A model generated the notes under the pieces. That model was not told where the DNA came from. It searched no databases and saw nothing but the letters and a program-made list of their open reading frames with translations. The position numbers were made by a program, and so were the translations under genes. DNA of 45,043 bases from positions 1 through 45,043 of the IMG/VR virus record IMGVR_UViG_3300028549_000749; one strand, given 5' to 3'. The DNA is from a virus. Positions 9,855 through 41,347 of this stretch are shown in pieces; positions within the stretch are counted from its first letter, which is position 1; the number at the start of each line of letters is the position of its first letter.

Positions 9855-10219
9855 TGGCTCACAGCGGAACGATTCTTTTTATGCGGACGGTTCCAGGAAA
9901 ACCGGAACTTAGGGCACTAACTTTATCTCTTGAGTGCAAGATGTGGGATGGCACAACGGATCTTATCCCGGCGGGATTTTCGTGGGACGGCAACTCTATC
10001 CCATTTATTTTTCGGGGGTTGTTCCCTCGGCATGATCACCCGCTGGCGTCAATAAAACATGACTATAGATGTAGCAAGGCAAAGAACACAGCGCAACGGG
10101 CGTGGTCTGATTTGGAGTTTCAGGCAGACGTTGGCACAACCGGGTGGTGGATCACTAAAAAGATAGGGTATATCGGGGTAAGGATCGGGGCTTTTTTAGG
10201 AATTGGCAGCAACTTTTAA
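9854..10219 (+). CDS. DUF1353-like protein
   Basis: The motif FSWDGNSIPFIFRGLFPRHDHPLASIKHDY resembles the DUF1353 core. It is the last gene of the late operon. Confidence 0.5.
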   Translation: MAHSGTILFMRTVPGKPELRALTLSLECKMWDGTTDLIPAGFSWDGNSIPFIFRGLFPRHDHPLASIKHDYRCSKAKNTAQRAWSDLEFQADVGTTGWWITKKIGYIGVRIGAFLGIGSNF

Positions 10220-10224
10220 GATAT

Positions 10225-10263
10225 GAGCCGCTCCGGTTAATGTTATCGGAGCGGCTTTTTTTA
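10225..10263. terminator. Bidirectional intrinsic terminator between convergent operons
   Basis: gagccgctccg-N11-cggagcggct followed by a T8 run. It sits between the + gene ending at 10219 and the - gene ending at 10264. Confidence 0.8.
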
Positions 10264-11049
10264 TTAGGCTGTTAACTCGTTATAAAGCTCGTTGAAAGTA
10301 TCTTCATAATAATGGGGCTGAACTTCAAGTCTATTCTGGGGACTCACATCTTTTTGACCGAACTTCAATCCCTTTGTTGTCAATGCTTTAAATGTCTTCG
10401 CCCCTTTGCTTGAAGGTCTTTCTTTTTCCTCAAGATATCCTGCCACCACCATAAGGGCATTAAATACCCTAACATTTATTGGGAGATTGTTCTTTTTTAA
10501 AAGCTCAGTTGCTGAGAATACCACCCTTGCCTTTTCCACATATTCCGGGAGAAAGGAGCTGCTGATATTATTTGCCTTGTAAACCATTGAGACAATATCA
10601 ATCTTTGACGCATCCGAATAATTTAACATCCTGGCGATTGTCTCCGCTCCCATCAATTGGCATTGAACGGTTTCCGGGATTTGTGCCGGGGCTTTTACTC
10701 TCCGAGATACCCTTTCACATTCAATGAAATACTTCCTTGCAGCTCTTCCTTTGTCGTTTTTCTCAACCATGGAAAGCTCTTTTGCCATGTCAAGAGAAAG
10801 GGCATATTCTACACGGGCTTTAGAATTTGATTCCACAAAATTATGGAATTGAATAAAATCAATATCTTGTGTAAACCCATACTGCTCGATCCTGCCTTTT
10901 ATCCATGTTGAATAATCTTGACCAACTTCAAGGAAAGAATGAAGTTCCCGAGCGTCAACTGAATTGACAACCTCTCCCCCGATTGCAGCTTCTGAAACTC
11001 TTACCAGTTGATTTATTGCAGAACTTGTGCTAAAGTTTCCTACTGTCAT
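10264..11049 (-). CDS. ant: Antirepressor, AntA/AntB N-terminal domain (copy 1)
   Basis: VVNSVDARELHSFLEVGQDYSTWIKGRIEQYGFTQDIDF...MAKELSMVEKNDKGRAARKYFIECE is the AntA/AntB-type N-terminal signature. Paralogous to 25262-26044. Confidence 0.75.
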   Translation of the reverse strand: MTVGNFSTSSAINQLVRVSEAAIGGEVVNSVDARELHSFLEVGQDYSTWIKGRIEQYGFTQDIDFIQFHNFVESNSKARVEYALSLDMAKELSMVEKNDKGRAARKYFIECERVSRRVKAPAQIPETVQCQLMGAETIARMLNYSDASKIDIVSMVYKANNISSSFLPEYVEKARVVFSATELLKKNNLPINVRVFNALMVVAGYLEEKERPSSKGAKTFKALTTKGLKFGQKDVSPQNRLEVQPHYYEDTFNELYNELTA

Positions 11050-11054
11050 AATTT

Positions 11055-11258
11055 TTATCCTTGTTTAAGTTGTGACTGTTCGGGCTTGTCAGTGACCGAT
11101 TCATTGATAAGCCCTTCTTTTTTCTTGCGGTCATCATCCATAATAAAATCCTGTATTGCCGTCAATACTAATTCCGACATTGTTTTATCATGGACATGGG
11201 CAAGGCCTTTAAACTTGTAATGTAAATCTTTTGGAATCTTGATTGTTAACTGTTTCAT
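11055..11258 (-). CDS. Ribbon-helix-helix (Arc/CopG-like) DNA-binding protein
   Basis: MKQLTIKIPKDLHYKFKGLAHVHDKTMSELVLTAIQDFI shows a beta-strand plus two-helix RHH pattern. It lies directly upstream of ant, as arc-ant does in P22 immI. Confidence 0.65.
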   Translation of the reverse strand: MKQLTIKIPKDLHYKFKGLAHVHDKTMSELVLTAIQDFIMDDDRKKKEGLINESVTDKPEQSQLKQG

Positions 11259-11277
11259 TATTTGATCCTTTTTTATG

Positions 11278-11306
11278 TTTGTACTCTTTTACATTTTTAA
11301 AGTCAA
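11278..11306 (-). promoter_or_regulatory. Possible sigma70-type promoter for the RHH-ant pair
   Basis: Minus strand TTGACT-N17-TACAAA. The leader is short and barely includes the SD. Confidence 0.3.
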
Positions 11307-11410
11307 TACAGAAAATTGTCCAAGATACAGAAGTTGAAAATCGTCCCAACTATGGCAGCAATTACGCTCCCCACATAAACAACCATCACTGTTATGTCAA
11401 ATTCTCTCAT
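11303..11410 (-). CDS. Possible small hydrophobic peptide (35 aa)
   Basis: MREFDITVMVVYVGSVIAAIVGTIFNFCILDNFLY. No clear RBS, so this is weak. Confidence 0.2.
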   Translation of the reverse strand: MREFDITVMVVYVGSVIAAIVGTIFNFCILDNFLY

Positions 11411-11449
11411 TTGTAGTCTCCCATTATTTTATTCGGTCTGGTAGGTTCA

Positions 11450-11620
11450 TTATTTCTCCTTTTTCACGATCTCAAACCCATTTTTATTTAGCCATTCATG
11501 AAACTCTTTGGCAGTAAAAACACAATCCTTTGGGAGCCAAAGACATTTTATAATCCAGTTTTTTGACTGCAAGTTGATACACTTCTTGGCCTTGCAGAAC
11601 TCGAACTTTTCATATTTCAT
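11450..11620 (-). CDS. Hypothetical small protein (56 aa)
   Basis: Not in the track. ATGA overlap with the upstream gene stop. Sequence: MKYEKFEFCKAKKCINLQSKNWIIKCLWLPKDCVFTAKEFHEWLNKNGFEIVKKEK. Confidence 0.5.
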   Translation of the reverse strand: MKYEKFEFCKAKKCINLQSKNWIIKCLWLPKDCVFTAKEFHEWLNKNGFEIVKKEK

Positions 11621-11919
11621 TCTATTTCCACCATCTCGTATTTAAATTTTGATATATGCGCCCATTCTGATGTTCCAAACTCCACATATTTTCCGCTCGA
11701 AAATAGCAAGAGTATGTTTGCCGATCCTCCGATATTGATAATGCCGTCCCCAATAGCATCTTTAGGATATGGAGCTTTAGCGGAAGAGATGTAATAGTCT
11801 TTATCATGCAAGCTGTAATAACCAAGCTTCCAAGCCCCTTTAATTATACCTGTGCCAAAGATCTTCCGTGCATGTTTTAACAATGAGTATGATTTTAAGG
11901 CGTAAACTTTATCTTTCAT
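11617..11919 (-). CDS. Hypothetical protein (100 aa)
   Basis: Track ORF trimmed to the ATG preceded by ggaggaaat (MKDKVYALK...). Confidence 0.6.
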   Translation of the reverse strand: MKDKVYALKSYSLLKHARKIFGTGIIKGAWKLGYYSLHDKDYYISSAKAPYPKDAIGDGIINIGGSANILLLFSSGKYVEFGTSEWAHISKFKYEMVEIE

Positions 11920-11927
11920 ATTTCCTC

Positions 11928-12137
11928 CTACCAAAAAACTCCATAAAGTATGAATTCACCATTACAAACTGGACAGGTGACCGTTTCCTCAATAGCCGGA
12001 AGATGATCGGCCCACGGATCGGTTACCGAAAACAGTTCCTCCAACAGCTCGTTATTTTCAAGCAGGTTGACACGCTGTTTACACAATGGACAACGGACAC
12101 TAAGCTCGATTGACAGTGAAGGGGTTGCTTTTTTCAT
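11928..12137 (-). CDS. Zn-ribbon protein (69 aa)
   Basis: Track ORF trimmed to M41, which has the RBS gaggagaagatcATG. Contains CPLC...CPVC pairs. Confidence 0.55.
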   Translation of the reverse strand: MKKATPSLSIELSVRCPLCKQRVNLLENNELLEELFSVTDPWADHLPAIEETVTCPVCNGEFILYGVFW

Positions 12138-12426
12138 GATCTTCTCCTCTAAACAAAACGGGTTTCCGTAAACAGTTGGCCAAAGCCACCTCCGCAATCG
12201 CCCCTGGAGACTCTTCCCAGTCCGGCAACGCCGCCAGCAAATCACATTCAAACACATAGTTCATACTGAGCCTCATATATGCCTCATATGTCAACCCATC
12301 TTCGTAATCGAGCGGAGACAGAACTTGATACCCAAGAGCCTCGTAATGATCTTTGATCCTCTGGAGTTTTTTTTTCCAGTTGGGATCTTTTGATATTGCG
12401 CCGATGGTGTAGATCTTTAATTTCAT
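12100..12426 (-). CDS. DUF4406 / nucleoside 2-deoxyribosyltransferase-like protein
   Basis: MKLKIYTIGAIS...YMRLSMNYVFECDLLAALPDWEESPGAIAEVALA matches the DUF4406 pattern (cD..l.l.gWe.S.GA..E...A). Confidence 0.5.
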   Translation of the reverse strand: MKLKIYTIGAISKDPNWKKKLQRIKDHYEALGYQVLSPLDYEDGLTYEAYMRLSMNYVFECDLLAALPDWEESPGAIAEVALANCLRKPVLFRGEDHEKSNPFTVNRA

Positions 12427-12527
12427 TTAGTTGAGACCCCCAGGGTATCGGCTATAACGATAGCCTTTTCATCTTCGGTTACAGTCCTGATCTTCCATCC
12501 GTTCTCTTTGAAGACTTGAAAGGCCAT
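12423..12527 (-). CDS. Possible small protein (34 aa)
   Basis: Internal ATG with the RBS ggaggaatgatagaATG just after the Rha stop. ATGA overlap with the downstream gene. Confidence 0.35.
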   Translation of the reverse strand: MAFQVFKENGWKIRTVTEDEKAIVIADTLGVSTK

Positions 12528-12531
12528 TCTA

Positions 12532-13245
12532 TCATTCCTCCAATGCCGTAATGATATCAAGGCAATTCTGACGATGCCGCCTCGAATATAGTTTTTTAAG
12601 ATTGTCTTTTCGCTCCTGGTAATCCATACCAAGTTCAATCAAGGCAGTATTTACTTTTTGCATGTCGGCAATGGCTGTGATAATTGGCTCTGGCATATGG
12701 TCCCTGAAACGCTCGTTTATATCGATATCGTGAATCTCACACCATTTCTTTTTTGTAACGCCCAGGACTATTTTATAAATCAATGTATGTTCATTTGAAA
12801 AATGATGTGGCATTGTTTCTTTTCCCAGTTCATTCCTGATATTCAAAAGAGCATCGGTCATAGGCTTGCATCCAAACCTTGCTATTTCATCTGATCTTTT
12901 ACGAATAGCCTCGTTTTTTATGAACGATTCCATTTTGTTGAAAGCATCAAGGAAAGACTCCCTCCATTGTGCCGCTTTATCTCCGGTGAATTTCATTATC
13001 AAGCAAGAGAAACCATCTCGTGTCATAAGGTAATATTTGTTCTTTTTACCGGAACCATCCTTATATTCACTCAACGCAAAATTGCGTTCAGTGAATTGCT
13101 GAGATTGACCCGATTTTTCTATAGCCCTAATGACGTCGGAATGTCTTTTCCCATAACTCAAAGCAACTTCTATAGAGGAAACTCTTACTCCGCCATTAAT
13201 CACAAACTCAATTCCATCAATTACCTTGGGTAAATTCTTCATCAT
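12532..13245 (-). CDS. rha: Rha-family phage regulatory protein (copy 1)
   Basis: VRVSSIEVALSYGKRHSDVIRAIE...YYLMTRDGFSCLIMKFTGDKAAQWRESFLDAFNKME matches the Phage_pRha pattern. The start was chosen at the ATG with the RBS gaggagaaag. By eye roughly 60% identical to 18453-19163. Confidence 0.8.
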   Translation of the reverse strand: MMKNLPKVIDGIEFVINGGVRVSSIEVALSYGKRHSDVIRAIEKSGQSQQFTERNFALSEYKDGSGKKNKYYLMTRDGFSCLIMKFTGDKAAQWRESFLDAFNKMESFIKNEAIRKRSDEIARFGCKPMTDALLNIRNELGKETMPHHFSNEHTLIYKIVLGVTKKKWCEIHDIDINERFRDHMPEPIITAIADMQKVNTALIELGMDYQERKDNLKKLYSRRHRQNCLDIITALEE

Positions 13246-13375
13246 CTTTCTCCTCTTTAACATCGTCTTTGATGTGCTGTAAAATTATCTCGGTCATTGT
13301 AAGGCCCTTTTCAACTGCATAATGTTTAAACTTTTTATGCAACTCCTCGTCAATTCTCATTACGAACTTTTTCAT
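13217..13375 (-). CDS. Ribbon-helix-helix protein (52 aa) upstream of Rha copy 1
   Basis: Not in the track. MKKFVMRIDEELHKKFKHYAVEKGLTMTEIILQHIKDD... RBS aaggaggttattaaATG. Confidence 0.6.
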   Translation of the reverse strand: MKKFVMRIDEELHKKFKHYAVEKGLTMTEIILQHIKDDVKEEKDDEEFTQGN

Positions 13376-13404
13376 TTAATAACCTCCTTTTTTGTGTATG
13401 GCTC

Positions 13405-13433
13405 AATATATATCTACACGTTAACAAAGTCAA
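13405..13433 (-). promoter_or_regulatory. Promoter of the leftward RHH-Rha...Ant operon
   Basis: Minus strand TTGACT-N17-TATATT, about 30 nt upstream of the RHH start. Confidence 0.6.
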
Positions 13434-13450
13434 GAACTATTTCATAAAAC

Positions 13451-13479
13451 TTGACACCATGAATAAAATATGAGAAATA
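13451..13479 (+). promoter_or_regulatory. Divergent promoter of the + strand cassette
   Basis: TTGACA-N17-GAAATA with TG at the extended -10 position (tgaGAAATA). Confidence 0.45.
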
Positions 13480-13485
13480 TAAAGC

Positions 13486-13604
13486 GTGGGCGGAAATGGC
13501 CATTTCCGAGACTGGTTCCCGCAAGCCAGCCGTCCCACACTCCATACATTGCGGAAAAGAAAGACCCCATTACGGCTTGCGGAGCTGTAGATGGGGTTTT
13601 TTAT
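13486..13604 (+). ncRNA. Structured 5' leader / candidate riboswitch-like attenuator (or stand-alone sRNA)
   Basis: P1 gtggg(13486-90)/cccac(13534-38). P2 cggaaat-ggcc-atttccg (13491-13508). P3 ctggtt-cccgca-agccag (13512-29). A terminator hairpin plus T-run follows. ccgcaagcc (13519-27) is perfectly complementary to ggcttgcgg (13574-82). Confidence 0.5.
13564..13604 (+). terminator. Intrinsic terminator inside the leader, 50 nt upstream of the first cassette ORF
   Basis: accccattac / gta(g)atggggt is a 10-bp stem with one bulge, followed by ttttttatt. Confidence 0.65.
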
Positions 13605-13655
13605 TCCCGGATCAATCAGCAATAACGCTGACAGCACATATATGGAGACTCAAAA

Positions 13656-14216
13656 ATGGAAAATGGTTTCGGAACTACTGACATTCTGACTGGTAGAGGG
13701 CTTGGTTTGGCTGGATTTGGTGGATATAATTACGGCGGGCAGTATGCGGATGTAAGCTCTAATGCCGTGCGAATCAACAGAAATGAGGGCGTAACCCGTG
13801 ATGCTGCATCTTGCGTTACTGGAGTTCTTGGAGCCAGCCTTGATCGTATCTCCGCACAGAACTTTGAGGGCAGATTCAACGCTGCCATTACGTCCTTGAG
13901 AGACGGGCAGTTTCAGGGAGAACTTAGGCTCAGTGACAGCTTGGCAGCCATTAGGCTTGATGCTGCTCATCAGGCGGCGGCGGCGGCTCAGTGTTGTTGT
14001 GAACTTAAAATTGAAATGTTGAAATGCTGCTGCGAAACTCAGAAACTCGTATCCGCTGAGGGGACCGCAACCAGGGAACTTATCAACCAGAACACAATCC
14101 GGGCAGCCGTTGACCAGAACAACATCAATGCCACTGTAGGTGCAATCAATGCCAATGCCAATGCTAATGCAAACGCAATTGTCCAGGCCATTAACAGCCA
14201 GTGCAGCAAGTCTTAA
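13656..14216 (+). CDS. Orphan protein with two Cys triplets (186 aa)
   Basis: RBS ggagactcaaaaATG. Gly/aromatic-rich N-terminus, Ala-rich helix, QCCCELKIEMLKCCCETQ, and an Asn/Ala-rich C-terminus (INANANANANA). No family recognised. Confidence 0.7.
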   Translation: MENGFGTTDILTGRGLGLAGFGGYNYGGQYADVSSNAVRINRNEGVTRDAASCVTGVLGASLDRISAQNFEGRFNAAITSLRDGQFQGELRLSDSLAAIRLDAAHQAAAAAQCCCELKIEMLKCCCETQKLVSAEGTATRELINQNTIRAAVDQNNINATVGAINANANANANAIVQAINSQCSKS

Positions 14217-14226
14217 TCGTTAAACA

Positions 14227-14248
14227 GGCGGGGCCAATGCGCCCCGCC
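14227..14248 (+). other. GC-rich intercistronic hairpin
   Basis: ggcgggg...ccccgcc directly after the stop of the 186-aa ORF, with no U-tract. Confidence 0.4.
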
Positions 14249-14261
14249 ATAAAGGAATATC

Positions 14262-14528
14262 ATGACAGAACCTAAAGATTTGCTTGAAAAAGAATCAACT
14301 CCATATGACATTGGCGGTCCTAATGCAAAAAAGGGAATGGTTTTAACAGACGCTGATCTTGCAACAAAAGAGGCCGTGCAGTGGAATGGTTTTGGTTTTG
14401 TTTGCAAGCTGTGCGGGATCCCAGCGGTTTTGCATTTTATGAAGTATTGCGGCAATTGTGGCGCTGCCGTTAATGTTCAATCAAATAAAGTTAACCGTTA
14501 TCTCGAAAAAAGAGAGGAGCGATATTGA
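14262..14528 (+). CDS. Zn-ribbon protein (88 aa)
   Basis: CKLCGIPAVLHFMKYCGNCG (CxxC-x11-CxxC). RBS aaaggaatatcATG. Confidence 0.65.
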   Translation: MTEPKDLLEKESTPYDIGGPNAKKGMVLTDADLATKEAVQWNGFGFVCKLCGIPAVLHFMKYCGNCGAAVNVQSNKVNRYLEKREERY

Positions 14529-14734
14529 TGGAAGAAAAATCGGATCTTGAAATGGCAATGGCTGCACTGACCGATGAAGTTGGTGGAGTTAAGGAATATC
14601 TTGAGATTGCAGAATATTGCAAGGACCAGGAGCTTAAAGCCATCGCCATGAACATTGCAGCAGACGAAAAGAAACATGCTAATATCCTGATGCAGTTTGT
14701 GGCAAAGCATGTGCAGGCCATGCTTTCAAAATAA
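14528..14734 (+). CDS. Two-helix ferritin-like protein, encapsulated-ferritin (EncFtn)-like
   Basis: TGATG overlap with the upstream stop. In the track numbering DEVGGVKEY...QELKAIAMNIAADEKKHANILMQFV gives E18, Y25, E48, H51. This has the same spacing as the EncFtn ferroxidase residues E32/Y39/E62/H65 (recalled from the R. rubrum protein). Confidence 0.55.
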   Translation: MEEKSDLEMAMAALTDEVGGVKEYLEIAEYCKDQELKAIAMNIAADEKKHANILMQFVAKHVQAMLSK

Positions 14735-14741
14735 AAATAAA

Positions 14742-14767
14742 CCATCCCGTAATTTTGTGCGGGATGG
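14742..14767. terminator. Terminator hairpin between convergent genes
   Basis: ccatcccg-N10-cgggatgg. On the minus strand it is followed by tttatttttatttt. It closes both the long leftward early operon and the + cassette. Confidence 0.65.
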
Positions 14768-14783
14768 CTTATTAAAAAATCAA

Positions 14784-15185
14784 CTATTCATGACACGTTC
14801 TCTCTGATCTGATGATTTCGTCCGCTGTTTTTCTGCATATCTTGCATATGACATGTTCCCAAGGATGTAAATGTTTTTTGATGTGGCGAATAAAAATATC
14901 GTCTCTTGACATTATCTCAATCTCTGATATGGCCTTAAGTACTGTATCAACGGTTACCCTGTCGTAATCTTTAATATCTTCTGGCAAACTATCGTAAGGA
15001 TACATATCTGGGTGACACAGATCACAAAACTTAAAACGTTCTGGGGTCTTATAAAAACCTAATGATTTTATCTTTGGGCAGTCAACTGGTGCATGAAACC
15101 CGGCTGCCTTCTTGGTTTCCCACCATGCGTCATGGACCTTTGCTGCAATCTCTTCTTTACGTTCTGTAAGTTCTTTAATTTCCAC
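14784..15185 (-). CDS. RyR-domain protein
   Basis: IAAKVHDAWWETKKAAGFHAP...CHPDMYPYDSLPEDIKDYDRVTVDTVL resembles the bacterial/phage RyR domain (HE.W...k...GW.yG...hP.lvPy..L.e..K..dR). GTG start with the RBS ggaggcagaactGTG. Confidence 0.5.
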   Translation of the reverse strand: MEIKELTERKEEIAAKVHDAWWETKKAAGFHAPVDCPKIKSLGFYKTPERFKFCDLCHPDMYPYDSLPEDIKDYDRVTVDTVLKAISEIEIMSRDDIFIRHIKKHLHPWEHVICKICRKTADEIIRSERTCHE

Positions 15186-15220
15186 AGTTCTGCCTCCATA
15201 TTAATGTCATAAACCCAAGT

Positions 15221-15361
15221 TTAACGTAATGATTTATCATCGTCAACATCCTCATTGTCATCATCTTCATTCTTGCGCTGATCCCTCGCCGGGTAAAATC
15301 CCAGGACTGCAAAAAACTCCTGACATGGGTAGTATAGCTTTTCGTCTTCTTTTTTCATCAT
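15221..15361 (-). CDS. Small acidic protein (46 aa)
   Basis: Trimmed to the ATG in ATGA overlap with the upstream stop. Asp/Glu-rich C-terminus. Confidence 0.45.
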   Translation of the reverse strand: MMKKEDEKLYYPCQEFFAVLGFYPARDQRKNEDDDNEDVDDDKSLR

Positions 15362-15777
15362 GACTCCATTATGCTTTTCCATTTGTTTGCAGCCACAGAC
15401 CCTGCCCAAAATGACGGAGCAGGAGCCTTTCCGGATCTCTCAAAGTATTCCACAATATCGTTGAGAGTTTCGGTTATCCTGGGGTTATATTTAAACTCTG
15501 ATCGCTCGATCAAATCAAGGCAAAATGACACGAGCGTAATAATGTGCTTGGGCTTTCCTTCCCATCCGGTTTCTTTGCCGAATTTTCCGACTAAAGACTC
15601 TATTATATCAAGCTCCCTTATCGTTGCCCTGGGAATTGCCTCAAGCTCTTTTGTTGCCGTTTTTGTTAGCCTGTTGTAAAGGTTTTTTAGTCTCCCCGGC
15701 TTGACTTGATCCTTGGTAAACTCCGGGATGCTGATTATCATTGCAAGCTCTGTCATCTTTTTATTTGTTTTATTCAT
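15358..15777 (-). CDS. Hypothetical protein (139 aa)
   Basis: RBS aagaggcatcATG. No family recognised. Confidence 0.65.
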   Translation of the reverse strand: MNKTNKKMTELAMIISIPEFTKDQVKPGRLKNLYNRLTKTATKELEAIPRATIRELDIIESLVGKFGKETGWEGKPKHIITLVSFCLDLIERSEFKYNPRITETLNDIVEYFERSGKAPAPSFWAGSVAANKWKSIMES

Positions 15778-15788
15778 GATGCCTCTTT

Positions 15789-16775
15789 TTATGCGAACAA
15801 ATCAAGCTGGCTTGGCCCATCTAAAGTTTTGATGTTTTTGATTGCCTGCCTGAAATAGCTTTCCTTTAACTCAATCCCAAGGCCCATCCTGCCAAGTTCA
15901 ACCGCCGAATAAACCTCGCTGCCGATGCCCATAAACGGGGTTAAGACTGTTTCCCCTGGATTGCTCCATAGTTGGATAGCCCGTCTTGACACATCCAGAG
16001 AAAGCGGGCAGATATGCTTCTCATCTTCGCTTGATCTTGCCGACATGTACTGGAGAGTGTTTGTCATTTTTATGTCCATCCATACCGGACTGGCATACCT
16101 TCTCCATCGCTCATGCGGTAATATCTTCTTTTTAGGGGGATTAATCTCTCTTGCGATGGCTCCCCATTGGCTGTCATTGTCCATATCTCCCACATCATCG
16201 GCAGGCTCATTCTCCCCGTAAAACTCTGTCAATCCTTCTGGGTGGGAAACAACTTCATCATTCCCCCCTGGCTTGCGAAACCCAAGGAGATAATCAGGGA
16301 TGCCTGCCCTGGACATGGTAGAGTCTTTGCAAAGCTGTTTGTGCATCAATCCAAGGGCCTTTGTTCTTACCGCTTCCAGGAGGGGATCTTTCCATATGCA
16401 ATGTTCAGAATGGAAAATAAAACCGTGCTTTTGAAACAGCCTAATCAGATCCCCTCTGAAATCTTTAAGGCCGATATACCCGTCCCGCTCCTTCATGGCC
16501 GGGATATTCATGCAGTGACATGCTGATATCCTGCCTGGTTTGGTGGTTCGGAATATTTCAGCCACAATATATCCCAGGTGATCATAAAATTCCTCGGGGC
16601 TTTTGCAGTTTCCGAGATCCCGATCCGAGTTTGAATATGTGTATAACGAATTAAAAGGCACAGAATATACAGACAAATCAATCGAATTGTCTGGGAAGTT
16701 CTTCATGACATCCGTTGAATCGCCATTGTACAGTGCATACCTGTCAGTAACTACATGGTCAATAACTCCATTCAT
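15789..16775 (-). CDS. DNA methyltransferase (N6_N4_Mtase-type, beta class)
   Basis: Motif IV-like DLSVYSVPF precedes motif I TPFMGIGSEVYSAVELGR. The start was set at the ATG with the RBS aaggagaataattATG just after the helicase stop. Confidence 0.75.
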   Translation of the reverse strand: MNGVIDHVVTDRYALYNGDSTDVMKNFPDNSIDLSVYSVPFNSLYTYSNSDRDLGNCKSPEEFYDHLGYIVAEIFRTTKPGRISACHCMNIPAMKERDGYIGLKDFRGDLIRLFQKHGFIFHSEHCIWKDPLLEAVRTKALGLMHKQLCKDSTMSRAGIPDYLLGFRKPGGNDEVVSHPEGLTEFYGENEPADDVGDMDNDSQWGAIAREINPPKKKILPHERWRRYASPVWMDIKMTNTLQYMSARSSEDEKHICPLSLDVSRRAIQLWSNPGETVLTPFMGIGSEVYSAVELGRMGLGIELKESYFRQAIKNIKTLDGPSQLDLFA

Positions 16776-16777
16776 AA

Positions 16778-18163
16778 TTATTCTCCTTTTACCCATGAAG
16801 GCAATTTGATTTGTTTTTTTGCGTTGTATTCGGACGTTTGCCGGATTGTTTTCGTGATCTCTTCTTTGGTAAAATCAGCCATTTGTTTGATCATTTCAAT
16901 TGACATGACCTCGGCCTGTTCGTGTTTCCGCTGAATATTCTCGACTATGGGCCTTTCCATATCGGTTACGATTATGTGGACGTTTACCGGGTGTTTTTGC
17001 CCGTATCTCCAGCATCGCCTTATTGCCTGATATAAAGCCTCGTATGAGTGAGACAAACCAAAAAAAATCATGTTGTGGCAATGCTGTAGATTCAATCCGA
17101 ACCCAAATATTTTAACTTTGCTGATCAAGGTTTGGCTGTCTCCGCTGATAAAATTTGCGATAGATTGCTCTTTGTGTAACGGTTTGTCAGACCCTTTAAC
17201 TTCCACTGAATTGGGGACCATTTTTTTAAGATAAAATGATTCATCGTTGAGATCACACCATATCAACCATTGTTCATCATTGATTATTTCAAGCACCTTT
17301 TTTATCCGGGCCTTTATTGATTCCCGCCTAACGACCCTTTGTTGATCCAGGCCAATAGCCGGGGCTTTAAAAAGTTCTCCGTCTGCCGGTTCTCCATACT
17401 CAACAAAATGGTAGTTCATGTTGAGTTGTGGAAGTTCAAACCCTTCATCACAGAACCCGATATCTGAAGGTTTTTTCATCATCAAGGCCCATGATGACAT
17501 CCATTTCCAGAATGCCTTGGGAGCATGGCCCTTCAATCTCCACTTTGATGTTTCCCCTCCGTCATGAACAAAGTAGGTTGCCAGCATTTCATTCCTTGAC
17601 ATAACCCCCAGGAATTCAGCATGGTTCCCTATTTCCATCATGTCATTTGGTGCTGGCGTTGCCGTGCAAGCCAATTTGTATGGAGTGCCGTTAAAAAATG
17701 ACACAATGTCGTTTCTTATCTTTCCCGCAAAATTTTTCAGGATTCCGGATTCATCCAGGACAACCCCATCAAATGTTGAACAATTGAAATGATTCAATAT
17801 CTCATAATTCGTTATATTGATCCCTTTCTTTACCGCTGAATCATCCCGTGCAATGTTCACGTCAAACCCAAATTTCACGCCCTCTTTTTGAGTTTGTGAA
17901 ACAACCGATAGCGGAGCAAGGATCAATACAGATCCGTTTGTTTTCCGGCAAACCGAATCAGCCCAGGCCAATTGTTCAAGAGATTTTCCTAGACCGCAAT
18001 CTTGGAAGATTGCAGCCCGGCCTTTTTCACAGGCCCATTCAATGACCGGCTTTTGGTAATGAAACACCCTTGACAGATCGGCCAGACATTTGTGACCGTG
18101 GCTGTGGTTTATGGTGCTTTTGTTTTGGAGAAATTGGTTATATTCCATCTGGTTTGTTTTCAT
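16778..18163 (-). CDS. SNF2/DEAD-like superfamily 2 helicase
   Basis: Motif I DCGLGKS, motif II VLDESG, motif VI QAIRRCWRYGQ. Confidence 0.8.
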   Translation of the reverse strand: MKTNQMEYNQFLQNKSTINHSHGHKCLADLSRVFHYQKPVIEWACEKGRAAIFQDCGLGKSLEQLAWADSVCRKTNGSVLILAPLSVVSQTQKEGVKFGFDVNIARDDSAVKKGINITNYEILNHFNCSTFDGVVLDESGILKNFAGKIRNDIVSFFNGTPYKLACTATPAPNDMMEIGNHAEFLGVMSRNEMLATYFVHDGGETSKWRLKGHAPKAFWKWMSSWALMMKKPSDIGFCDEGFELPQLNMNYHFVEYGEPADGELFKAPAIGLDQQRVVRRESIKARIKKVLEIINDEQWLIWCDLNDESFYLKKMVPNSVEVKGSDKPLHKEQSIANFISGDSQTLISKVKIFGFGLNLQHCHNMIFFGLSHSYEALYQAIRRCWRYGQKHPVNVHIIVTDMERPIVENIQRKHEQAEVMSIEMIKQMADFTKEEITKTIRQTSEYNAKKQIKLPSWVKGE

Positions 18164-18184
18164 GGGGTTCCTTGTTATGTAAAA

Positions 18185-18436
18185 CTACATCTTTTCCAAA
18201 AAACTCAATTTCACAATGCCCTTTTCGTACCCATTGCGTACGCTGCTATCTTTCACTTTAGTGGGGTCTCTGCGTAAATGTGAAAACGAGAATACAAATG
18301 AAGGCTCGGAAGGCTCTGTCATCTCACGAGCAAAATCCTCTATCAGTATAGACCCATCTTTTATTTTTTCAGCGATCCTTATCAGTTCTTCAGAAACTTT
18401 TAGATAGTAGTCTGTTTCTTTAAATTGTAAAGCCAT
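18185..18436 (-). CDS. Hypothetical protein (83 aa)
   Basis: RBS aaggagaaccaccATG. Confidence 0.6.
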   Translation of the reverse strand: MALQFKETDYYLKVSEELIRIAEKIKDGSILIEDFAREMTEPSEPSFVFSFSHLRRDPTKVKDSSVRNGYEKGIVKLSFLEKM

Positions 18437-18452
18437 GGTGGTTCTCCTTGTT

Positions 18453-19163
18453 TTATTCTTCTATCTTATTGATCTCTTCAAGACATGCCTGTAAATGCCG
18501 CTTGGTGTAAAGTTTGTCAAGCTTGGCTTTGCGGTCTTCATATTCCATTCCAAGCTCAATCAAATCAGTGTTCACTCTTTGCATATCTGCGATGGCTTTT
18601 ATCATTGGGGCGGGCATATGATCCCTGAATCTTTCTTTGCTGTCAATGCCATGAACTTCGCACCATTGCTTTTTTGTGGCTCCGAGAACAATTTTATAAA
18701 TCAAAGTGTGTTCATTGGAATAATGGAAAGGCTTTGTGTTTTTTCCTGCTTCCGTTCTTATATTAAGCAAGGCTTGGGCCATCGGTCTGCATTCAAGTTT
18801 TGCTTCATCATCTGATTTTTTGCGCTCATGCTCGGAAATTATGAACGCTTCCATTTTGTTGAATGCTTCAATAAAATCAACTTTCCATACGGCAGCCTTA
18901 GCCCCAGTAAACCCCATTGCAAGAAAAGACATTCCATCTCTTGTTAAAAGGTAATGTGGCCTTCTTTGATTGTTCTTGTCTGTGTATTCGCCCAGCGTAA
19001 AATTGCGCTCGGCAAAACCAATTGGACAATCAAGATTTCTTATAGATCTCAAAACTTCTTTGTGATCTTTTTCAAATTTGTTTGCTATTTGGATTGATGA
19101 CACACGGATATTTCCGTTAACTGAGAACTCAATTCCATCAATAACACTTGGCACGTTTTTCAT
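18453..19163 (-). CDS. rha: Rha-family phage regulatory protein (copy 2)
   Basis: IRVSSIQIANKFEKDHKEVLRSIRNL...HYLLTRDGMSFLAMGFTGAKAAVWKVDFIEAFNKME. ATGA overlap with the RHH gene. Confidence 0.8.
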   Translation of the reverse strand: MKNVPSVIDGIEFSVNGNIRVSSIQIANKFEKDHKEVLRSIRNLDCPIGFAERNFTLGEYTDKNNQRRPHYLLTRDGMSFLAMGFTGAKAAVWKVDFIEAFNKMEAFIISEHERKKSDDEAKLECRPMAQALLNIRTEAGKNTKPFHYSNEHTLIYKIVLGATKKQWCEVHGIDSKERFRDHMPAPMIKAIADMQRVNTDLIELGMEYEDRKAKLDKLYTKRHLQACLEEINKIEE

Positions 19164-19318
19164 TTAGTTTCCTTTTTTGGCAATTCGTACTGGTTGATAA
19201 ATTTCCTGATAACTTCAGATGATGTTTCCATCTCAACCTCAGCTATCTCCTTTAGTTTTTCGATTTGGTCTTGTCTCAATCTGAGAGTGAACCTTTTTAC
19301 TTTCTGATAAGTTTCCAT
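19160..19318 (-). CDS. Ribbon-helix-helix protein (52 aa) upstream of Rha copy 2
   Basis: METYQKVKRFTLRLRQDQIEKLKEIAEVEMETSSEVIRKFI. Trimmed to M13 because the -35 box of the promoter covers the longer ORF start. Confidence 0.6.
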   Translation of the reverse strand: METYQKVKRFTLRLRQDQIEKLKEIAEVEMETSSEVIRKFINQYELPKKETK

Positions 19319-19325
19319 GGTTTTT

Positions 19326-19354
19326 ATTCTATCCCTTGTTGTAACATATGTCAA
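19326..19354 (-). promoter_or_regulatory. Strong promoter giving a (near-)leaderless RHH-Rha transcript
   Basis: Minus strand TTGACA-N17-TAGAAT, then 7 nt (aaaaacc), then the ATG at 19318. Confidence 0.6.
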
Positions 19355-19381
19355 GTTATTTGTTGGAATGGGATTTGTTTA

Positions 19382-19407
19382 TTAAGGGCCTACGGGTAGA
19401 CCCTTAA
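19382..19407. other. Hairpin separating the MazG-like gene from the next promoter
   Basis: ttaaggg-N12-cccttaa with a poor U-tract, so terminator function is uncertain. Confidence 0.3.
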
Positions 19408-19413
19408 ATGGTT

Positions 19414-19761
19414 TTATTTGGGGAGATTTATCAGCAGCCTCAAACACATAGCCCCAGTCTGAATAACCTCCTTTTTCAGATCATCCAGGCAAGCTCCCTC
19501 TTTGTATTCGATCCGCAGGGCCTCACGGATGCTTTCCCCTGCCTCTTCCATCATGATCGCGGTTTGATGGACGATATCAGTGGGCCAATGGGGGTGCTGT
19601 TTGCAGGCTGAATAGTATTCATCGACAATTTGGCTCATGGCGGTATCAAGGCTTTTTGTCTCTTCCGTTTCATGGTCTGTGTTCTCCATGGTACAGCACA
19701 TATCTTTGATCAATTGTTTAAAAAGATTATCTATTTCTGCAAATGTTTTTCTCTGGATCAT
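19414..19761 (-). CDS. Possible MazG-like NTP pyrophosphohydrolase fold protein
   Basis: The AIMMEEAGESIREAL (EExGE) ... KKEVIQTGAMCLRLL pattern suggests this fold. Tentative. Confidence 0.35.
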   Translation of the reverse strand: MIQRKTFAEIDNLFKQLIKDMCCTMENTDHETEETKSLDTAMSQIVDEYYSACKQHPHWPTDIVHQTAIMMEEAGESIREALRIEYKEGACLDDLKKEVIQTGAMCLRLLINLPK

Positions 19762-20072
19762 TTTGTTTCCTTTGAGTTTATGTATTTTTTAATGTCAAGG
19801 TCACACCGATCAATCTTTGATACCCATCCGTGTTTTGCATGGCACGAAAAACATGCCGGTTTTAAATTATCAATCTCATCTTTTCCTCCTTGCGAAGTAT
19901 GTTTCAAATGATGTGCATGGAGTTGGCAGTCAAGGGCGTGGTCTCCCGGGGGAAATATCATCAAGCAGTATTGGCATTGGTAATTATAATTTTCAAACAC
20001 CTGTTGGACAAGTTCCCGACTGAGCTTTCGCCTTTCTTTTATTCTCTTTTCTGGCTTGGGTTGAGGGTTCAT
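19758..20072 (-). CDS. HNH endonuclease
   Basis: CQYC...HAHHLKHTSQGGKDEIDNLKPACFSCHAKH. The start was set at the ATG in ATGA overlap with the upstream Zn-ribbon ORF. Confidence 0.75.
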   Translation of the reverse strand: MNPQPKPEKRIKERRKLSRELVQQVFENYNYQCQYCLMIFPPGDHALDCQLHAHHLKHTSQGGKDEIDNLKPACFSCHAKHGWVSKIDRCDLDIKKYINSKETK

Positions 20073-20933: not shown

Positions 20934-21671
20934 TTAAACTTCAATCTTTAAGCAATCGTCAATTACGTGACTCTGGCCGTGTAGTTCTGCGAAAATCATA
21001 ACCTTTGATTTAACATCCTGGTAAATATCCTTGTAAAACAGCTTTTTGTTCATGCCGACTCTAAGGCCCCTATCGATTATCTGTTCTGCGGAACTTACTG
21101 TCATGAGTTGTTGGGTTGACATCACCTCCCGCAAGTTTTTATATTTTCCCTCAACTATAAATAAAAGTCCGTTCATCATCTTGGTTATAGACGTGTAATA
21201 CCTGTGGGCATTATTGCTGCCCTGTGATTCTGCATATTCAACAAATCTTTGCATTTCATCTGTTGTTTGTTTTCTTACGAGTTTTCCGGCATCCCTGGTT
21301 ATTTGGTATGACGGGTTGTGTTTGTGTTCTCTAAGTGCAGATAAGCTTTTTTTAATATGAACAAAATCATTAGCAAGTCTTTCCTTGAAATCCAAAACAA
21401 GATCAGTGTTTCTAAAAATAGACCCAAGGAAAATAGTTTGCTGTTCATTTAGGAGGTATTCCTCAACTGGCCTTCCTGCTGTTTTTGAAGGAACCTTATG
21501 AATAATAAACCGTTCCAGGAACGACTTATTATTCTCCAGCCTGAAAAACCTTTCCTTGTATTTATTTATCAATCTCAAAACTTCGTTGTGTTCTCTGTTG
21601 AATCCTTGAGATATTAGAAAGGTTCCTGCTCTTGGTTCATCATCGTGAAGATTTACAATTTCATTTACCAT
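20934..21671 (-). CDS. Rha-like regulatory protein (copy 3, divergent C-terminus)
   Basis: TFLISQGFNREHNEVLRLINKY...GRPVEEYLLNEQQTIFLGSIFRNTDLVLDFKERLANDF fits the Phage_pRha pattern. Confidence 0.55.
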   Translation of the reverse strand: MVNEIVNLHDDEPRAGTFLISQGFNREHNEVLRLINKYKERFFRLENNKSFLERFIIHKVPSKTAGRPVEEYLLNEQQTIFLGSIFRNTDLVLDFKERLANDFVHIKKSLSALREHKHNPSYQITRDAGKLVRKQTTDEMQRFVEYAESQGSNNAHRYYTSITKMMNGLLFIVEGKYKNLREVMSTQQLMTVSSAEQIIDRGLRVGMNKKLFYKDIYQDVKSKVMIFAELHGQSHVIDDCLKIEV

Positions 21672-25130: not shown

Positions 25131-25265
25131 TTGAAAAAATTAGAGTGTAAACGTTGTGGTCATAAATGGATTCCAAGGGTTGAAGGTAAACCAGTTGCTT
25201 GCCCTGCTTGCAATAGCCGAAAATGGAATGAAGAAAAAACATATAAAAAGGAGCTTGAAAAATGA
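25131..25265 (+). CDS. Zn-ribbon protein (44 aa)
   Basis: Not in the track. TTG start with the RBS aaggagattggt. (M)KKLECKRCGHKWIPRVEGKPVACPACNSRKW.. ATGA overlap with ant copy 2. Confidence 0.5.
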   Translation: MKKLECKRCGHKWIPRVEGKPVACPACNSRKWNEEKTYKKELEK

Positions 25266-26044
25266 ATCAAGTAACAACTATCAACACTTTGGAAGTAACA
25301 AAGCAATTCATTGGGACAGAAAAGGTAAATTCAGTGGATGCCAGGGCGCTGCATTTTTTCCTTGAGAGCGGACAAGAATTTGCGGCATGGATTAAAAACA
25401 GAATTACGCAATACGAGTTCACGGAAGGTATTGATTTTATTAGGTTTGATAATTCTATCAAAGCCGAAAATACCTATATTAATACCAAGGAGTACATAAT
25501 CACCATATACATGGCAAAAGAGCTTTCCATGGTTGAGCGTAACGAAAAGGGAAAGGAGGCCAGAAAATATTTTATCGAATGCGAAAAAAAGGCAAAGACA
25601 GCCTTGCCAGGAACCTTTGCAGAAGCTCTCCGGCTTGCAGCGGACCAGGCCGAACAGCTCGAAGCCCACAAGTTACAGATTGCCATGGATGCCGCCAAGA
25701 TTGCCCATGATAAGCCCCTGGTTGAATTTGCCCGAACAGTTGAAGGCACAGACAAGAAGATATCAATCGGAGACATGGCCAAGCTATCCGGAAAGATTGG
25801 CCGGAACAATCTATTCAAAAAAATGCAAGAAGAAAAGATCCTTATATCCCATGGCCGGGATCACAATAAACCATATCAGCGGTATATTGACCAGGGTTAT
25901 TTTGAGGTTACCGAGACTATTGTTAAGCGGGCGGCAGGCGATGTAATCACATTTACCACCCATGTTACCGGCAAGGGTCAAACTTGGCTTATGGGCAAGA
26001 TTAACGCTTGGTGTTCGACTGAAATCATTTTCATATCGTGTTGA
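25262..26044 (+). CDS. ant: Antirepressor, AntA/AntB N-terminal domain (copy 2)
   Basis: KVNSVDARALHFFLESGQEFAAWIKNRITQYEFTEGIDF...MAKELSMVERNEKGKEARKYFIECE. Confidence 0.75.
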   Translation: MNQVTTINTLEVTKQFIGTEKVNSVDARALHFFLESGQEFAAWIKNRITQYEFTEGIDFIRFDNSIKAENTYINTKEYIITIYMAKELSMVERNEKGKEARKYFIECEKKAKTALPGTFAEALRLAADQAEQLEAHKLQIAMDAAKIAHDKPLVEFARTVEGTDKKISIGDMAKLSGKIGRNNLFKKMQEEKILISHGRDHNKPYQRYIDQGYFEVTETIVKRAAGDVITFTTHVTGKGQTWLMGKINAWCSTEIIFISC

Positions 26045-39532: not shown

Positions 39533-39592
39533 TGGTATAAATAGGCCCGTACGATGTGCGGGTCAACAACATTCGACGAATGGAGACACAAG

Positions 39593-40237
39593 ATGAAAGT
39601 GGTTATCAGTAAAGAAGAGTTTGCAGCACTCGACACGTTATTTCAGGCAGAATACAAAGAGGCTGATGGCTCCTTTGTCCTCAATGCTGATGGCATTGAT
39701 AATCATCCTGATGTTAAGGCGCTCAAGGGAGCTTATACCGGCGAGAAAGACAAACGAACGGCGGCGGCCAAGCGGCTTGAAGAACTTGATGCAGCAAAGA
39801 AGCTTGCAGACGAGGCAACCCTGGCCGAGCAGCAGAAGTTCAAGGATCTTTCGGACCTTAAAACGGTAGAGGCTCAGAAGTACGCCGACGAACTCAAGGC
39901 ACTCAAGGATAAGGTTGTTCAGACAGAGATGGATGGGATTGCCAGAAAGATAGCCACCGCAATAAACAAAGAAGATCCAAGGCGGCAAAATTCTCTTATC
40001 CATGAGATCAAGCCGTATTTAAAGAACACGGAAAACGGGATCTCATTGCTAAATGCAGACGGGACCCCGACAGATGAAAAAAGTATCATCGCAAAACTTA
40101 CAACTGATTTCCCTTTCCTTGCGGCGGCAAACCCGGCGGGGGGTGGAGGTGGATCAGGAAACAATAACCCAACAGCACCAGCAACGCCACCCAAGACAGC
40201 AGCAGAAGCCAATAAGGCAGCGTGGGCAGGTGTATAA
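39593..40237 (+). CDS. Scaffolding protein
   Basis: Immediately upstream of the major capsid gene. Charged coiled-coil (AAAKRLEELDAAKKLADEATLAEQQKFKDL...) and a Gly/Pro/Ala-rich C-terminus. Confidence 0.65.
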   Translation: MKVVISKEEFAALDTLFQAEYKEADGSFVLNADGIDNHPDVKALKGAYTGEKDKRTAAAKRLEELDAAKKLADEATLAEQQKFKDLSDLKTVEAQKYADELKALKDKVVQTEMDGIARKIATAINKEDPRRQNSLIHEIKPYLKNTENGISLLNADGTPTDEKSIIAKLTTDFPFLAAANPAGGGGGSGNNNPTAPATPPKTAAEANKAAWAGV

Positions 40238-40246
40238 GGATAAAAT

Positions 40247-41347
40247 ATGCCAGTAATCACCGGAATGATCGACTCTTACAAAATACCCACAAACGCTCGG
40301 GATCTTTCCACAGCATTCACCATGCTTAAGTTCCCCAACACTCCAATTTTTAACATGATCTCCATGCCCGGCACTTGCTCTGCAAGAAAGCGTGAGTGGT
40401 GGGACGATGTTCTTTTGCCCACTGGAACCACCATCACAGAGCCTTATACAGCGGCTGCTGGATCAATGACCCTTGAATCCGTTGACTCTGTACGGGTAGG
40501 CTCGGTAATCAGGGTAGACAGCTCAGTTTACCGGATTACAGCGATCAATACTTCAACCAAAGTTGCCACGGTAACTATCATTGCAGCAGATGCGAATCAT
40601 CTTGACAATGCAAAAGTTACTTTCCTTTCAACCGCAAAGGTGGAAGGTTCGGTCTTTGAATCTTCAGATAACGCCACAGAAATACTGAGGTACAACAACA
40701 CGCAGATCTTTGACGACTGGATCGAGATCTCTGGAACAGAGCAGGTTGTTGCCCGTGAGATTAACCAGGGCGATTTGCTTGCTCAGAAGTCCATGCGTAA
40801 GATTGAAAGAATTTATCACCAGATGGCAAAGATCGTAACTTCTGGAGGTGTCCGGGTTGACGCAACGACAAACGCAACCGCTCGGATGATGGGCGGTATT
40901 GATTTCTTCATTACTGCTTATGGGTATAATCCAGCCGCCGCCGCTTTCTCAGCAGCCAACTTTGACGCTTTCCTTTATGAGATGGAGCAGACATACGGAA
41001 GGACTCCCACAGAGGCTTTCCTAAACCCTGTTGACTTGCAGAAGTTCACCGCCCTGCGGAACACCCAGATCGTAATTGATCGGACAGATACCGCCCGTGG
41101 TGAGTATGTTGACAGGTACCTCTCTGGTTACGGTTATGACGTTCGCCTTATTCCAGATCCCACGCTCCTTGCCGGGAAAATCCGGGTGTTTGGAATGGAT
41201 CAGGTAAAACTCCTGCCTCTCCAGGGCCGGTCACTCCAGGCTTACCCGCTTGGCAGACTCGGTGACAAGACACAGTATGGCATTGTTGGAGAGTACACTC
41301 TTGAGTTCAACAACTCTGCAACAACCGGGGCGTTCTCAATCTCATAG
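40247..41347 (+). CDS. Major capsid protein
   Basis: 366 aa, after the scaffold. The N-terminal ...ARKREWWDDVLLP resembles the DUF5309/SU10-type capsid family. A stable hairpin follows. Confidence 0.8.
   Translation: MPVITGMIDSYKIPTNARDLSTAFTMLKFPNTPIFNMISMPGTCSARKREWWDDVLLPTGTTITEPYTAAAGSMTLESVDSVRVGSVIRVDSSVYRITAINTSTKVATVTIIAADANHLDNAKVTFLSTAKVEGSVFESSDNATEILRYNNTQIFDDWIEISGTEQVVAREINQGDLLAQKSMRKIERIYHQMAKIVTSGGVRVDATTNATARMMGGIDFFITAYGYNPAAAAFSAANFDAFLYEMEQTYGRTPTEAFLNPVDLQKFTALRNTQIVIDRTDTARGEYVDRYLSGYGYDVRLIPDPTLLAGKIRVFGMDQVKLLPLQGRSLQAYPLGRLGDKTQYGIVGEYTLEFNNSATTGAFSIS

Follow-up and report, generated by a model that had tools for sequence, protein, structure and literature searches.

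EncFtn-type half-ferritins are generally regarded as useful only together with an encapsulin shell. In the Rhodospirillum rubrum protein (Rru EncFtn), Glu32, Glu62 and His65 are the ferroxidase ligands, a conserved Tyr39 lies ~4.5 Å away, and mutation of the ligands reduces or abolishes ferroxidase activity (PMC11202242). The only ferritin-superfamily genes noted in phages to date are those for Dps and Mn-catalase, each standing alone; carriage of these two by gut phages of anaerobes was read as protection from reactive oxygen species, with the suggestion that the encoded proteins reduce the levels of free iron and of such species in hosts sensitive to oxygen (bioRxiv 10.1101/2020.10.07.330464). 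Our literature search turned up no account of a phage-encoded EncFtn-like protein; a report of an "encapsulin in a prophage" of P. multocida concerns a capsid-like protein and not EncFtn. Here we describe a 68-aa EncFtn-like protein, hereafter mini-ferritin, encoded at 14528-14734 in the IMG/VR virus record IMGVR_UViG_3300028549_000749, whose full stretch of 45,043 nt (hereafter the window) derives from a microbial-mat metagenome.

Mini-ferritin is the third of three plus-strand genes set between minus-strand regulatory and replication genes, and the operon comprises:

13656-14216, plus strand: MENG gene, 186 aa, first of the operon, with a Gly/Tyr-rich N-terminus and a Cys-Cys-Cys run (C113-C115)
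14262-14528, plus strand: zinc-ribbon gene, 88 aa, second of the operon, with C48, C51, C63 and C66 (CxxC-x11-CxxC)
14528-14734, plus strand: mini-ferritin open reading frame (ORF), 68 codons, from the ATG at 14528 to the TAA at 14732-14734

An initial annotation of this DNA had given the coordinates and length of the third gene exactly. Its ATG overlaps the TGA of the zinc-ribbon gene (TGATG, 14526-14530), a ribosome-binding site (GAGAGGAG) lies 8 nt 5′ of that ATG, and the product is MEEKSDLEMAMAALTDEVGGVKEYLEIAEYCKDQELKAIAMNIAADEKKHANILMQFVAKHVQAMLSK. A word-indexed protein search returned one close relative, 96% identical, on the 4.6-kb metagenomic contig L001, where the DNA surrounding mini-ferritin is 91.6% identical to the window. 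Third codon positions hold 21 of the 24 nucleotide differences between the two mini-ferritin ORFs, giving 19 synonymous and 3 non-synonymous codon differences, and the zinc-ribbon gene shows 19 synonymous and 0 non-synonymous ones. Because synonymous changes dominate in these comparisons, both ORFs are real coding genes under purifying selection. Among 50,697 deposited phage genomes there was no DNA match to positions 10000-20000 of the window, and tblastn of the 68-aa protein against the same genomes gave only chance matches to ribonucleotide reductase beta subunits (E of at least 2). The residues that had drawn attention to the gene are Glu17, Tyr24, Glu47 and His50, which bear out the annotated spacing of 0, +7, +30 and +33; the corresponding pattern, E-x6-Y-x22-E-x2-H, is seen a single time when the window is translated in all six frames, compared to a mean of 0.005 in shuffled sequence (n=200).

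Homology searches connect this small protein to EncFtn. Pfam EncFtn-like (PF22277) is its best family (32.5 bits, E=7.6e-8; gathering score 27), the match placing residues 2-64 on profile positions 11-73 of 85, and seven cassette-type hairpin relatives score 23-76 bits against the same model in three scans; the hidden Markov model (HMM) check that the annotation had proposed against EncFtn models thus came out significant. Several other ferritin-clan Pfam families match below their cutoffs, and classical ferritin (PF00210) gives zero match to the window protein. The NCBIfam encapsulin-associated models TIGR04535 and NF058679 (EncB family) are related and far under cutoff (27.6 bits vs 125 and 24.5 vs 90, respectively), and in PHROGs no mini-ferritin family was found below E=0.078. 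The wider family surfaced only with an exhaustive HMMER search of 1.84 billion representatives, which yielded 29 proteins at E<=1e-3, of which 22 span 63-80 aa. Upon aligning 23 short proteins (mean column identity 41%), the invariant columns were M1, E17, G20, Y24, E47, K48 and H50, and the loss of E/Y/E/H positions among homologues, on which the annotation had staked its reading, was not seen. The best PDB sequence match from the single sequence is NE0167 of Nitrosomonas europaea (3k6c, E=3.8e-6), and the family profile matches 3k6c (6e-14), R. rubrum EncFtn 5da5 (4.5e-9), H. ochraceum EncFtn (7e-8) and M. xanthus EncB (1e-6), all ungapped. The ungapped profile alignment to Rru_A0973 (5da5) places residues 17/24/47/50 on 32/39/62/65, which, along with a 2024 review (PMC11202242), confirms the R. 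rubrum residues E32/Y39/E62/H65 that the annotation had given.

Structure prediction gave a compatible picture. AlphaFold2 (AF2) models the monomer as a helix-loop-helix (helices 2-30 and 34-66; mean predicted local distance difference test score, pLDDT, 93.5), and each of its 50 best PDB matches by Foldseek is a chain of the EncFtn family (3k6c, 5n5e, 5da5 and variants, 5n5f, 7s5c/7s5k and 7s8t), with query TM-scores of 0.76-0.88 and 3k6c the closest at 0.88. In BFVD, the weak structural neighbours include phage proteins automatically named "ferritin-like" and "rubrerythrin". The two-helix ferritin fold with an EncFtn match, as initially suggested, is thus the one predicted. Collectively, these comparisons support the assignment of the 68-aa protein as a minimal EncFtn-like member of the ferritin superfamily, of the s-FLP type.

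Gene linkage extends the argument beyond the single protein. With three family HMMs, the trio of MENG, zinc ribbon and mini-ferritin was recovered at 6/6 independent phage loci with enough flanking sequence, a small co-occurrence sample whose loci had been found through mini-ferritin itself. Trio loci are:

L002/L003: relative of the window phage
L005/L006: crAss-like phage encoding Crass_capsid and ring proteins, in which the zinc ribbon comes after mini-ferritin
L007-L009: phage with SU10-type portal and capsid
L018/L019: trio locus
L020/L021: trio locus

Examples of the cassette come from SU10-like, crAss-like and Mu-portal phages; it is a previously undescribed three-gene cassette common to unrelated uncultured phages. 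A search for related loci seeded by alignment A2 returned 0 viral contigs. For a ferritin-blind sample, ten MENG loci (seven IMG/VR contigs and three long contigs) were chosen without reference to ferritin, and a ferritin-superfamily gene was present in the cassette at five of the ten:

L012: classical ferritin with EY and ExxH intact (PF00210, 112 bits), directly upstream of MENG and after a small CxxC...CxxC protein
L013, 7868-8350: classical-type ferritin (PF00210, 30.5 bits; cutoff 24.5), whose start overlaps the zinc-ribbon stop
L023: ferritin-like, borderline (PF00210, 24.3 bits; cutoff 24.5), starting 1 nt past the annotated zinc-ribbon end
L022: EncFtn-like protein of canonical length, 92 aa (PF22277, 76 bits), adjoining the zinc ribbon
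L024: mini-ferritin, 64 aa (PF22277, 40 bits), between terminase and Mu-type portal

Among the remaining five, L010 holds MENG and zinc ribbon only, and L011, L014, L015 and L016 hold MENG alone. The occurrence of three ferritin-superfamily architectures in one position is the strongest contextual argument for ferritin-type work (iron binding or oxidation) by the 68-aa protein.

The reading that we favour, with somewhat better than even confidence, is that mini-ferritin is half of a ferritin, two copies of which come together to form a di-iron site, and that it serves a phage iron/redox module in the infected cell. A single hairpin alone cannot form the metal site. Two mini-ferritin chains would pack antiparallel into a four-helix bundle, as do EncFtn and "due ferri" peptides, and a symmetric di-iron carboxylate centre, 2 x (E17, E47, H50) with Y24 in the second shell, would then sit at the dimer interface and might oxidise Fe(II) with O2 or H2O2. 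The translationally coupled four-Cys zinc-ribbon protein may act as a metal-binding/delivery or electron-transfer partner, and mini-ferritin is presumably co-transcribed with the MENG coiled-coil protein, behind a structured leader with a terminator. The benefit could be less Fenton/oxygen damage, a stress that is plausible in the microbial mat from which the window derives, or iron management for Cys-rich partner proteins. Iron oxidation or sequestration in the infected cell would be the most likely role, because other phages place a full-length EncFtn-like or classical ferritin in the same position.

Several observations weigh against a di-iron half-ferritin. Confident AF2 models numbered 2/5, and the Foldseek E-values are weak (~1e-2), since helical hairpins are simple folds. 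Mini-ferritin is without the EncFtn N-terminal segment and short third helix, which makes a decameric ring doubtful. The "entry site" of the R. rubrum protein is half kept, E31/E34 corresponding to D16/G19, with an acidic residue at the second position in about half of the homologues. EncFtn-type proteins oxidise iron and cannot keep the product soluble without a shell (PMC8346489), so that catalysis or buffering would be a likelier task for mini-ferritin than storage, unless the shell is replaced by a partner. Furthermore, the ferroxidase ligands of the L013 ferritin are seemingly lost relative to T. maritima ferritin (E to M, E to R and H to Y, in an uncertain, low-identity pairwise alignment), so that the shared role may not be catalysis. 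The same apparent loss would suit a non-catalytic hairpin that binds MENG or the zinc-ribbon protein as an adaptor or chaperone, its ferritin-like residues inherited and not used; the very small size of the protein, without the EncFtn accessory helices, and the absence of an assigned function for MENG point the same way. We give this explanation only a slim chance: no aligned homologue departs from the four metal-site residues or from the neighbouring G20 and K48, whereas identity over the remaining sequence has fallen to 34-58%, as is expected of an active site in use, and the L012 ferritin keeps its ExxH and EY motifs.

The zinc-ribbon partner raises a different alternative. Its four cysteines are invariant across 11 aligned homologues, many of which carry an extra N-terminal CxC...CPxH that the window protein is without. 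Pfam matches are to generic zinc ribbons only, and a rubredoxin or Bfd identity is not established. P. furiosus rubrerythrin has a rubredoxin-like domain with identically spaced cysteines (CxxC-x11-CxxC), and this domain is among the best PDB matches of the partner at a non-significant E=0.06, the others being generic zinc ribbons. Mini-ferritin itself marginally passes Pfam Rubrerythrin (PF02915; 23.5 bits vs a cutoff of 22.8), over profile positions 5-55 of 137, which is half of the domain, and several four-helix relatives are rubrerythrin-like (P0015, P0022). Together with the translational coupling and constant adjacency of the zinc-ribbon and mini-ferritin genes, and with a microbial mat as source, these likenesses could indicate a split mini-rubrerythrin, in which a hairpin dimer and a rubredoxin-like Fe(Cys)4 partner act as a peroxidase that reduces H2O2, and so protect an oxygen-sensitive mat host, instead of oxidising iron for sequestration. 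A single-chain four-helix rubrerythrin with its own rubredoxin-like domain is not what was found, as the Cys4 module is a separate gene. We consider the split form unlikely, although it deserves attention: the EncFtn-like model scores best, Tyr24 corresponds to the second-shell tyrosine of ferroxidase type, and the cassette contains no reductase gene. Moreover, the partner family also pairs with classical ferritins (L013 and L023, with a similar small CxxC...CxxC protein in L012), which fits better with a ferritin-associated partner role.

MENG, the first gene of the operon, is present in all phage loci bearing mini-ferritin and belongs to a far larger family (at least 232 clusters, all unannotated), for which no Pfam or PHROG family was found; it is MENG around which the cassette is built. 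From a 60-sequence alignment, AF2 predicts a disordered N-terminus followed by a single helix of ~150 residues (33-183; pLDDT 84.7), and the Cys-Cys-Cys run is nearly invariant in the family. A scaffolding role for MENG was considered and ruled out, as a phrog_206 scaffold adjoins the capsid gene of the phage. MENG-like proteins also occur in cultured phages, namely ORF29 of Yersinia phage PY100 (L032 3054-3722) and gp08 of Edwardsiella phage eiAU (L033 3081-3731). Over 29 residues, the MENG core, (K/R)CCCETQK...A(T)RELI, shares 65-69% identity with these hypothetical proteins, both of which likewise have a Gly-rich N-terminus. The eiAU gene lies in a plus-strand cassette between tail genes and opposite-strand early genes, and the PY100 gene in a similar plus-strand cassette beside opposite-strand early genes, its upstream genes being opposite-strand hypotheticals. 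Neither cassette holds a ferritin or zinc-ribbon gene, and in both the next gene is His-rich.

EncFtn is best known from encapsulins, and the initial annotation had stressed that the genome encodes an HK97-type capsid. This was borne out: the window is a tailed phage of the HK97 capsid lineage, with terminase, portal, scaffold, major capsid protein and tape measure, of which the head genes most relevant here are:

39554-40237: scaffold (phrog_206)
40247-41347: SU10-type major capsid protein

The lack of a C-terminal targeting extension, also noted at the outset, holds as well: the chain ends with helix 2 (...AKHVQAMLSK), with no disordered tail, and no targeting-peptide-like C-terminus was found in mini-ferritin or 22 homologues. 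No encapsulin gene was found in the window, the SU10-type capsid protein being the only HK97-lineage protein among the scanned ORFs. Judged from these sequences, mini-ferritin is not encapsulin cargo, because it has neither a targeting peptide nor a shell gene.

A tie to the capsid of the phage itself, which the annotation had implied, is unsupported. Packaging of mini-ferritin in the HK97-fold procapsid or capsid, or in empty procapsids acting like encapsulins, would connect phage capsids with encapsulin cargo systems, and a few points speak for it. In P0024 (288 aa; L025 691-1557), an EncFtn/rubrerythrin-like hairpin at the N-terminus is joined to an XkdF-type putative prohead serine protease at the C-terminus (PF14550, 72 bits), in a phage-like context. 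The cassette also adjoins terminase and portal genes in L024 and L007, and a preprint from 2025 raises, as speculation, the idea of cargo-like enzymes inside procapsids (10.1101/2025.06.18.659913). We regard packaging as highly improbable for the window phage, given the C-termini described above and the ~25 kb that separate the gene from the head genes; its operon is a distinct one, with opposite-strand genes on either side. The phage encodes its own scaffolding protein, the position of the cassette varies (after tail genes, before terminase, beside lysis-type genes), and its constant neighbours are zinc-ribbon and coiled-coil proteins, not capsid proteins. Over 56 residues the P0024 hairpin shares 41% identity with mini-ferritin, and a Tad2-like gene adjoins it on a 1.9-kb contig.

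An extended proposal, to which we attach a small probability, would make the cassette a self-contained phage iron system of a hitherto undescribed kind, in which iron is loaded or mineralised on MENG, or for it, by the half-ferritin together with the Cys4 protein, MENG replaces the encapsulin shell or joins the virion, and a new metal- or redox-responsive leader RNA switches the operon. In its furthest version, if true, the hairpin would enter procapsids and represent a living intermediate between phage capsid and cargo-loaded encapsulin, at which the XkdF fusion hints.

The region of ~390 bp located 5′ of MENG contains a structured element (folding z=-4.15), with the following parts in the window:

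13485-13555, plus strand: 5′ leader RNA, comprising a three-way junction (13485-13538) and boxes
13486-13490 / 13534-13538, plus strand: leader P1, which encloses P2 (13491-13508) and P3 (13512-13529)
13563-13602, plus strand: GC-rich terminator-like hairpin, GACCCCAU...AUGGGG and a U6 run, ~50 nt before MENG

Four leader copies were found:

Window, 13485-13602, plus strand
L002, 8507-8632
L018, 925-1047
L030, 1-92, minus strand

Folded separately, L002, L018 and L030 each adopt this same architecture, and all three helices (P1, P2 and P3) show compensatory changes. Located 3′ of the junction are an invariant ACUCC and then UGCGGA (13550-13555), and a second UGCGGA falls inside the terminator-like hairpin (13578-13583); the invariant CCGCA of the P3 loop complements the invariant UGCGG of both the linker and this hairpin. 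The hairpin is kept in L002 and L018, and the window copy was not reported by a consensus scanner. Based on these features, the leader looks like a riboswitch or antitermination element. Rfam holds no family for the leader and matched none anywhere in the window, in which no tRNA was found either. A scan of IMG/VR for the leader motif found it absent, and a scan of metagenomes gave 2 true matches (one of them L018 again) and 4 chance matches. In the region upstream of MENG, no Fur box was found within 3 mismatches, and a sigma-70 scan gave a weak promoter candidate only, whose -10 element is not kept in L002.

Neighbours of the operon are anti-repressor/Rha genes on the 5′ side (10264-13375) and, on the 3′ side, an RyR-domain gene, a DNA methylase and an SNF2 helicase (14784-18163). 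Features in and beyond these flanks are:

10264-11049, minus strand: Ant/Rha-type anti-repressor/regulator gene
12532-13263, minus strand: Ant/Rha-type anti-repressor/regulator gene
14742-14767: GC-rich 8-bp hairpin, CCATCCCG / CGGGATGG, with a 10-nt loop, read from the sequence
14784-15185, minus strand: RyR-domain protein, 133 aa
18453-19163, minus strand: Ant/Rha-type anti-repressor/regulator gene
20934-21671, minus strand: Ant/Rha-type anti-repressor/regulator gene
25262-26044, plus strand: Ant/Rha-type anti-repressor/regulator gene

Five separate Ant/Rha-type genes are unusually many for one 45-kb phage genome. The RyR-domain protein (PF02026, 29.1 bits vs a cutoff of 27.4) has several CxxC/HxC motifs; its gene converges on that of mini-ferritin and is kept beside the cassette in L001. 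The hairpin at 14742-14767 sits between these two convergent genes, with a T-run after it on the minus strand only, and went unreported by the consensus terminator scanner because its loop is 10 nt. Regarding the host, prophage scans of genome contigs with the MENG alignment and with the portal found none, and the portal is only ~34% identical to portals of Proteobacteria siphophages.

Many cassettes contain a fourth component that is absent from the window, consisting of small Cys-rich proteins with no Pfam match and a repeated motif, C-x-(D/N)-(G/E)-x-T-(I/L)-E-V ... A-V ... (H)L-x-(H/Q)-G-(D/A) ... C-G-x-C. Their positions are:

L002, 9363-9731
L010, 6593-6979
L018, 1706-2107
L024, 10643-10888
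L023, 10657-10978
L012, 6435-6893
L013, 6499-6738
L020, 1811-2161
L022, 10760-11122

A single homologue, a 72-aa EncFtn-like protein, was found in a clearly cellular context (L017 8001-8219), amid glycosyltransferases, a sortase and a tRNA synthetase. It is nearer to canonical EncFtn in sequence, and the gene before it encodes a multi-pass membrane protein of 105 aa; the locus has neither of the phage-type partners, and no encapsulin is found among the called genes of the 9.7-kb locus (contig 11 kb).

For a protein type thought to depend on an encapsulin, mini-ferritin is a form free of both shell and targeting peptide, and the smallest natural one found. Its selection in several unrelated phage lineages with the same two partners, and its replaceability by full ferritins, argue that phages in sediments and microbial mats actively manage iron or oxidative chemistry in the host. 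With three small genes and one leader RNA, the system is tractable for asking how a minimal di-iron protein might work shell-free. The cassette also defines a large unannotated phage family (MENG) and a candidate regulatory RNA, and for the question of how encapsulins and phages are related, the XkdF fusion P0024 shows a place to look.

Compared with described systems, mini-ferritin most resembles the s-FLP NE0167 (3k6c), which is the closest by sequence and fold, has the same E/Y/E/H positions and is likewise without a C-terminal targeting peptide (PMC11202242). NE0167 has 95 aa and crystallises as a decamer, whereas mini-ferritin is 27 residues shorter and lacks both the N-terminal segment and the third short helix of its relative; furthermore, NE0167 is bacterial and chromosomal, whereas the mini-ferritin family is found in phage cassettes with two dedicated partner genes. 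EncFtn/Flp cargo proteins (Rru_A0973, 5da5; H. ochraceum, 5n5f; M. xanthus EncB/C) share with it the helical-hairpin subunit (predicted for mini-ferritin), the ligand spacing and the Pfam family, and their ferroxidase centre spans two chains; they have a targeting peptide and an encapsulin gene, whereas mini-ferritin has neither and fails the NCBIfam encapsulin-associated cutoffs. The Dps and Mn-catalase genes described by Benler et al. (10.1101/2020.10.07.330464) are, like mini-ferritin, phage-borne members of the ferritin superfamily, but they encode full four-helix bundles of other families as single genes, whereas mini-ferritin is a half-bundle in a conserved cassette with a leader. "Due ferri" DF1 peptides, among which 2kik, 1lt1 and 2hz8 appear as sequence matches to mini-ferritin, are minimal hairpins that dimerise to a four-helix di-metal site (E...ExxH), as proposed here; they are designed, and the likeness reflects motif, not ancestry.

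As for the partner, rubrerythrin shares its Cys4 spacing, in a C-terminal Fe(Cys)4 domain and at a likeness that is not significant, and holds bundle and Cys4 module in one chain, whereas here two chains would make up the bundle, and a protein of its own supplies the Cys4 module. Bfd is the ferredoxin partner of bacterioferritin, with a proposed electron transfer to or from stored iron; no sequence similarity was detected between Bfd and the zinc-ribbon partner, which looks like a zinc ribbon. In both the Bfr-Bfd and the IMEF encapsulin-ferredoxin systems a small Cys-rich gene adjoins a ferritin-type gene, as in the cassette, and the IMEF-associated ferredoxin is proposed to move electrons to or from stored iron (PMC8346489). 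That phages carry ferritin-superfamily genes is therefore known; the new elements are a hairpin of minimal form with obligate partners, a cassette position at which ferritin types interchange, and the leader.

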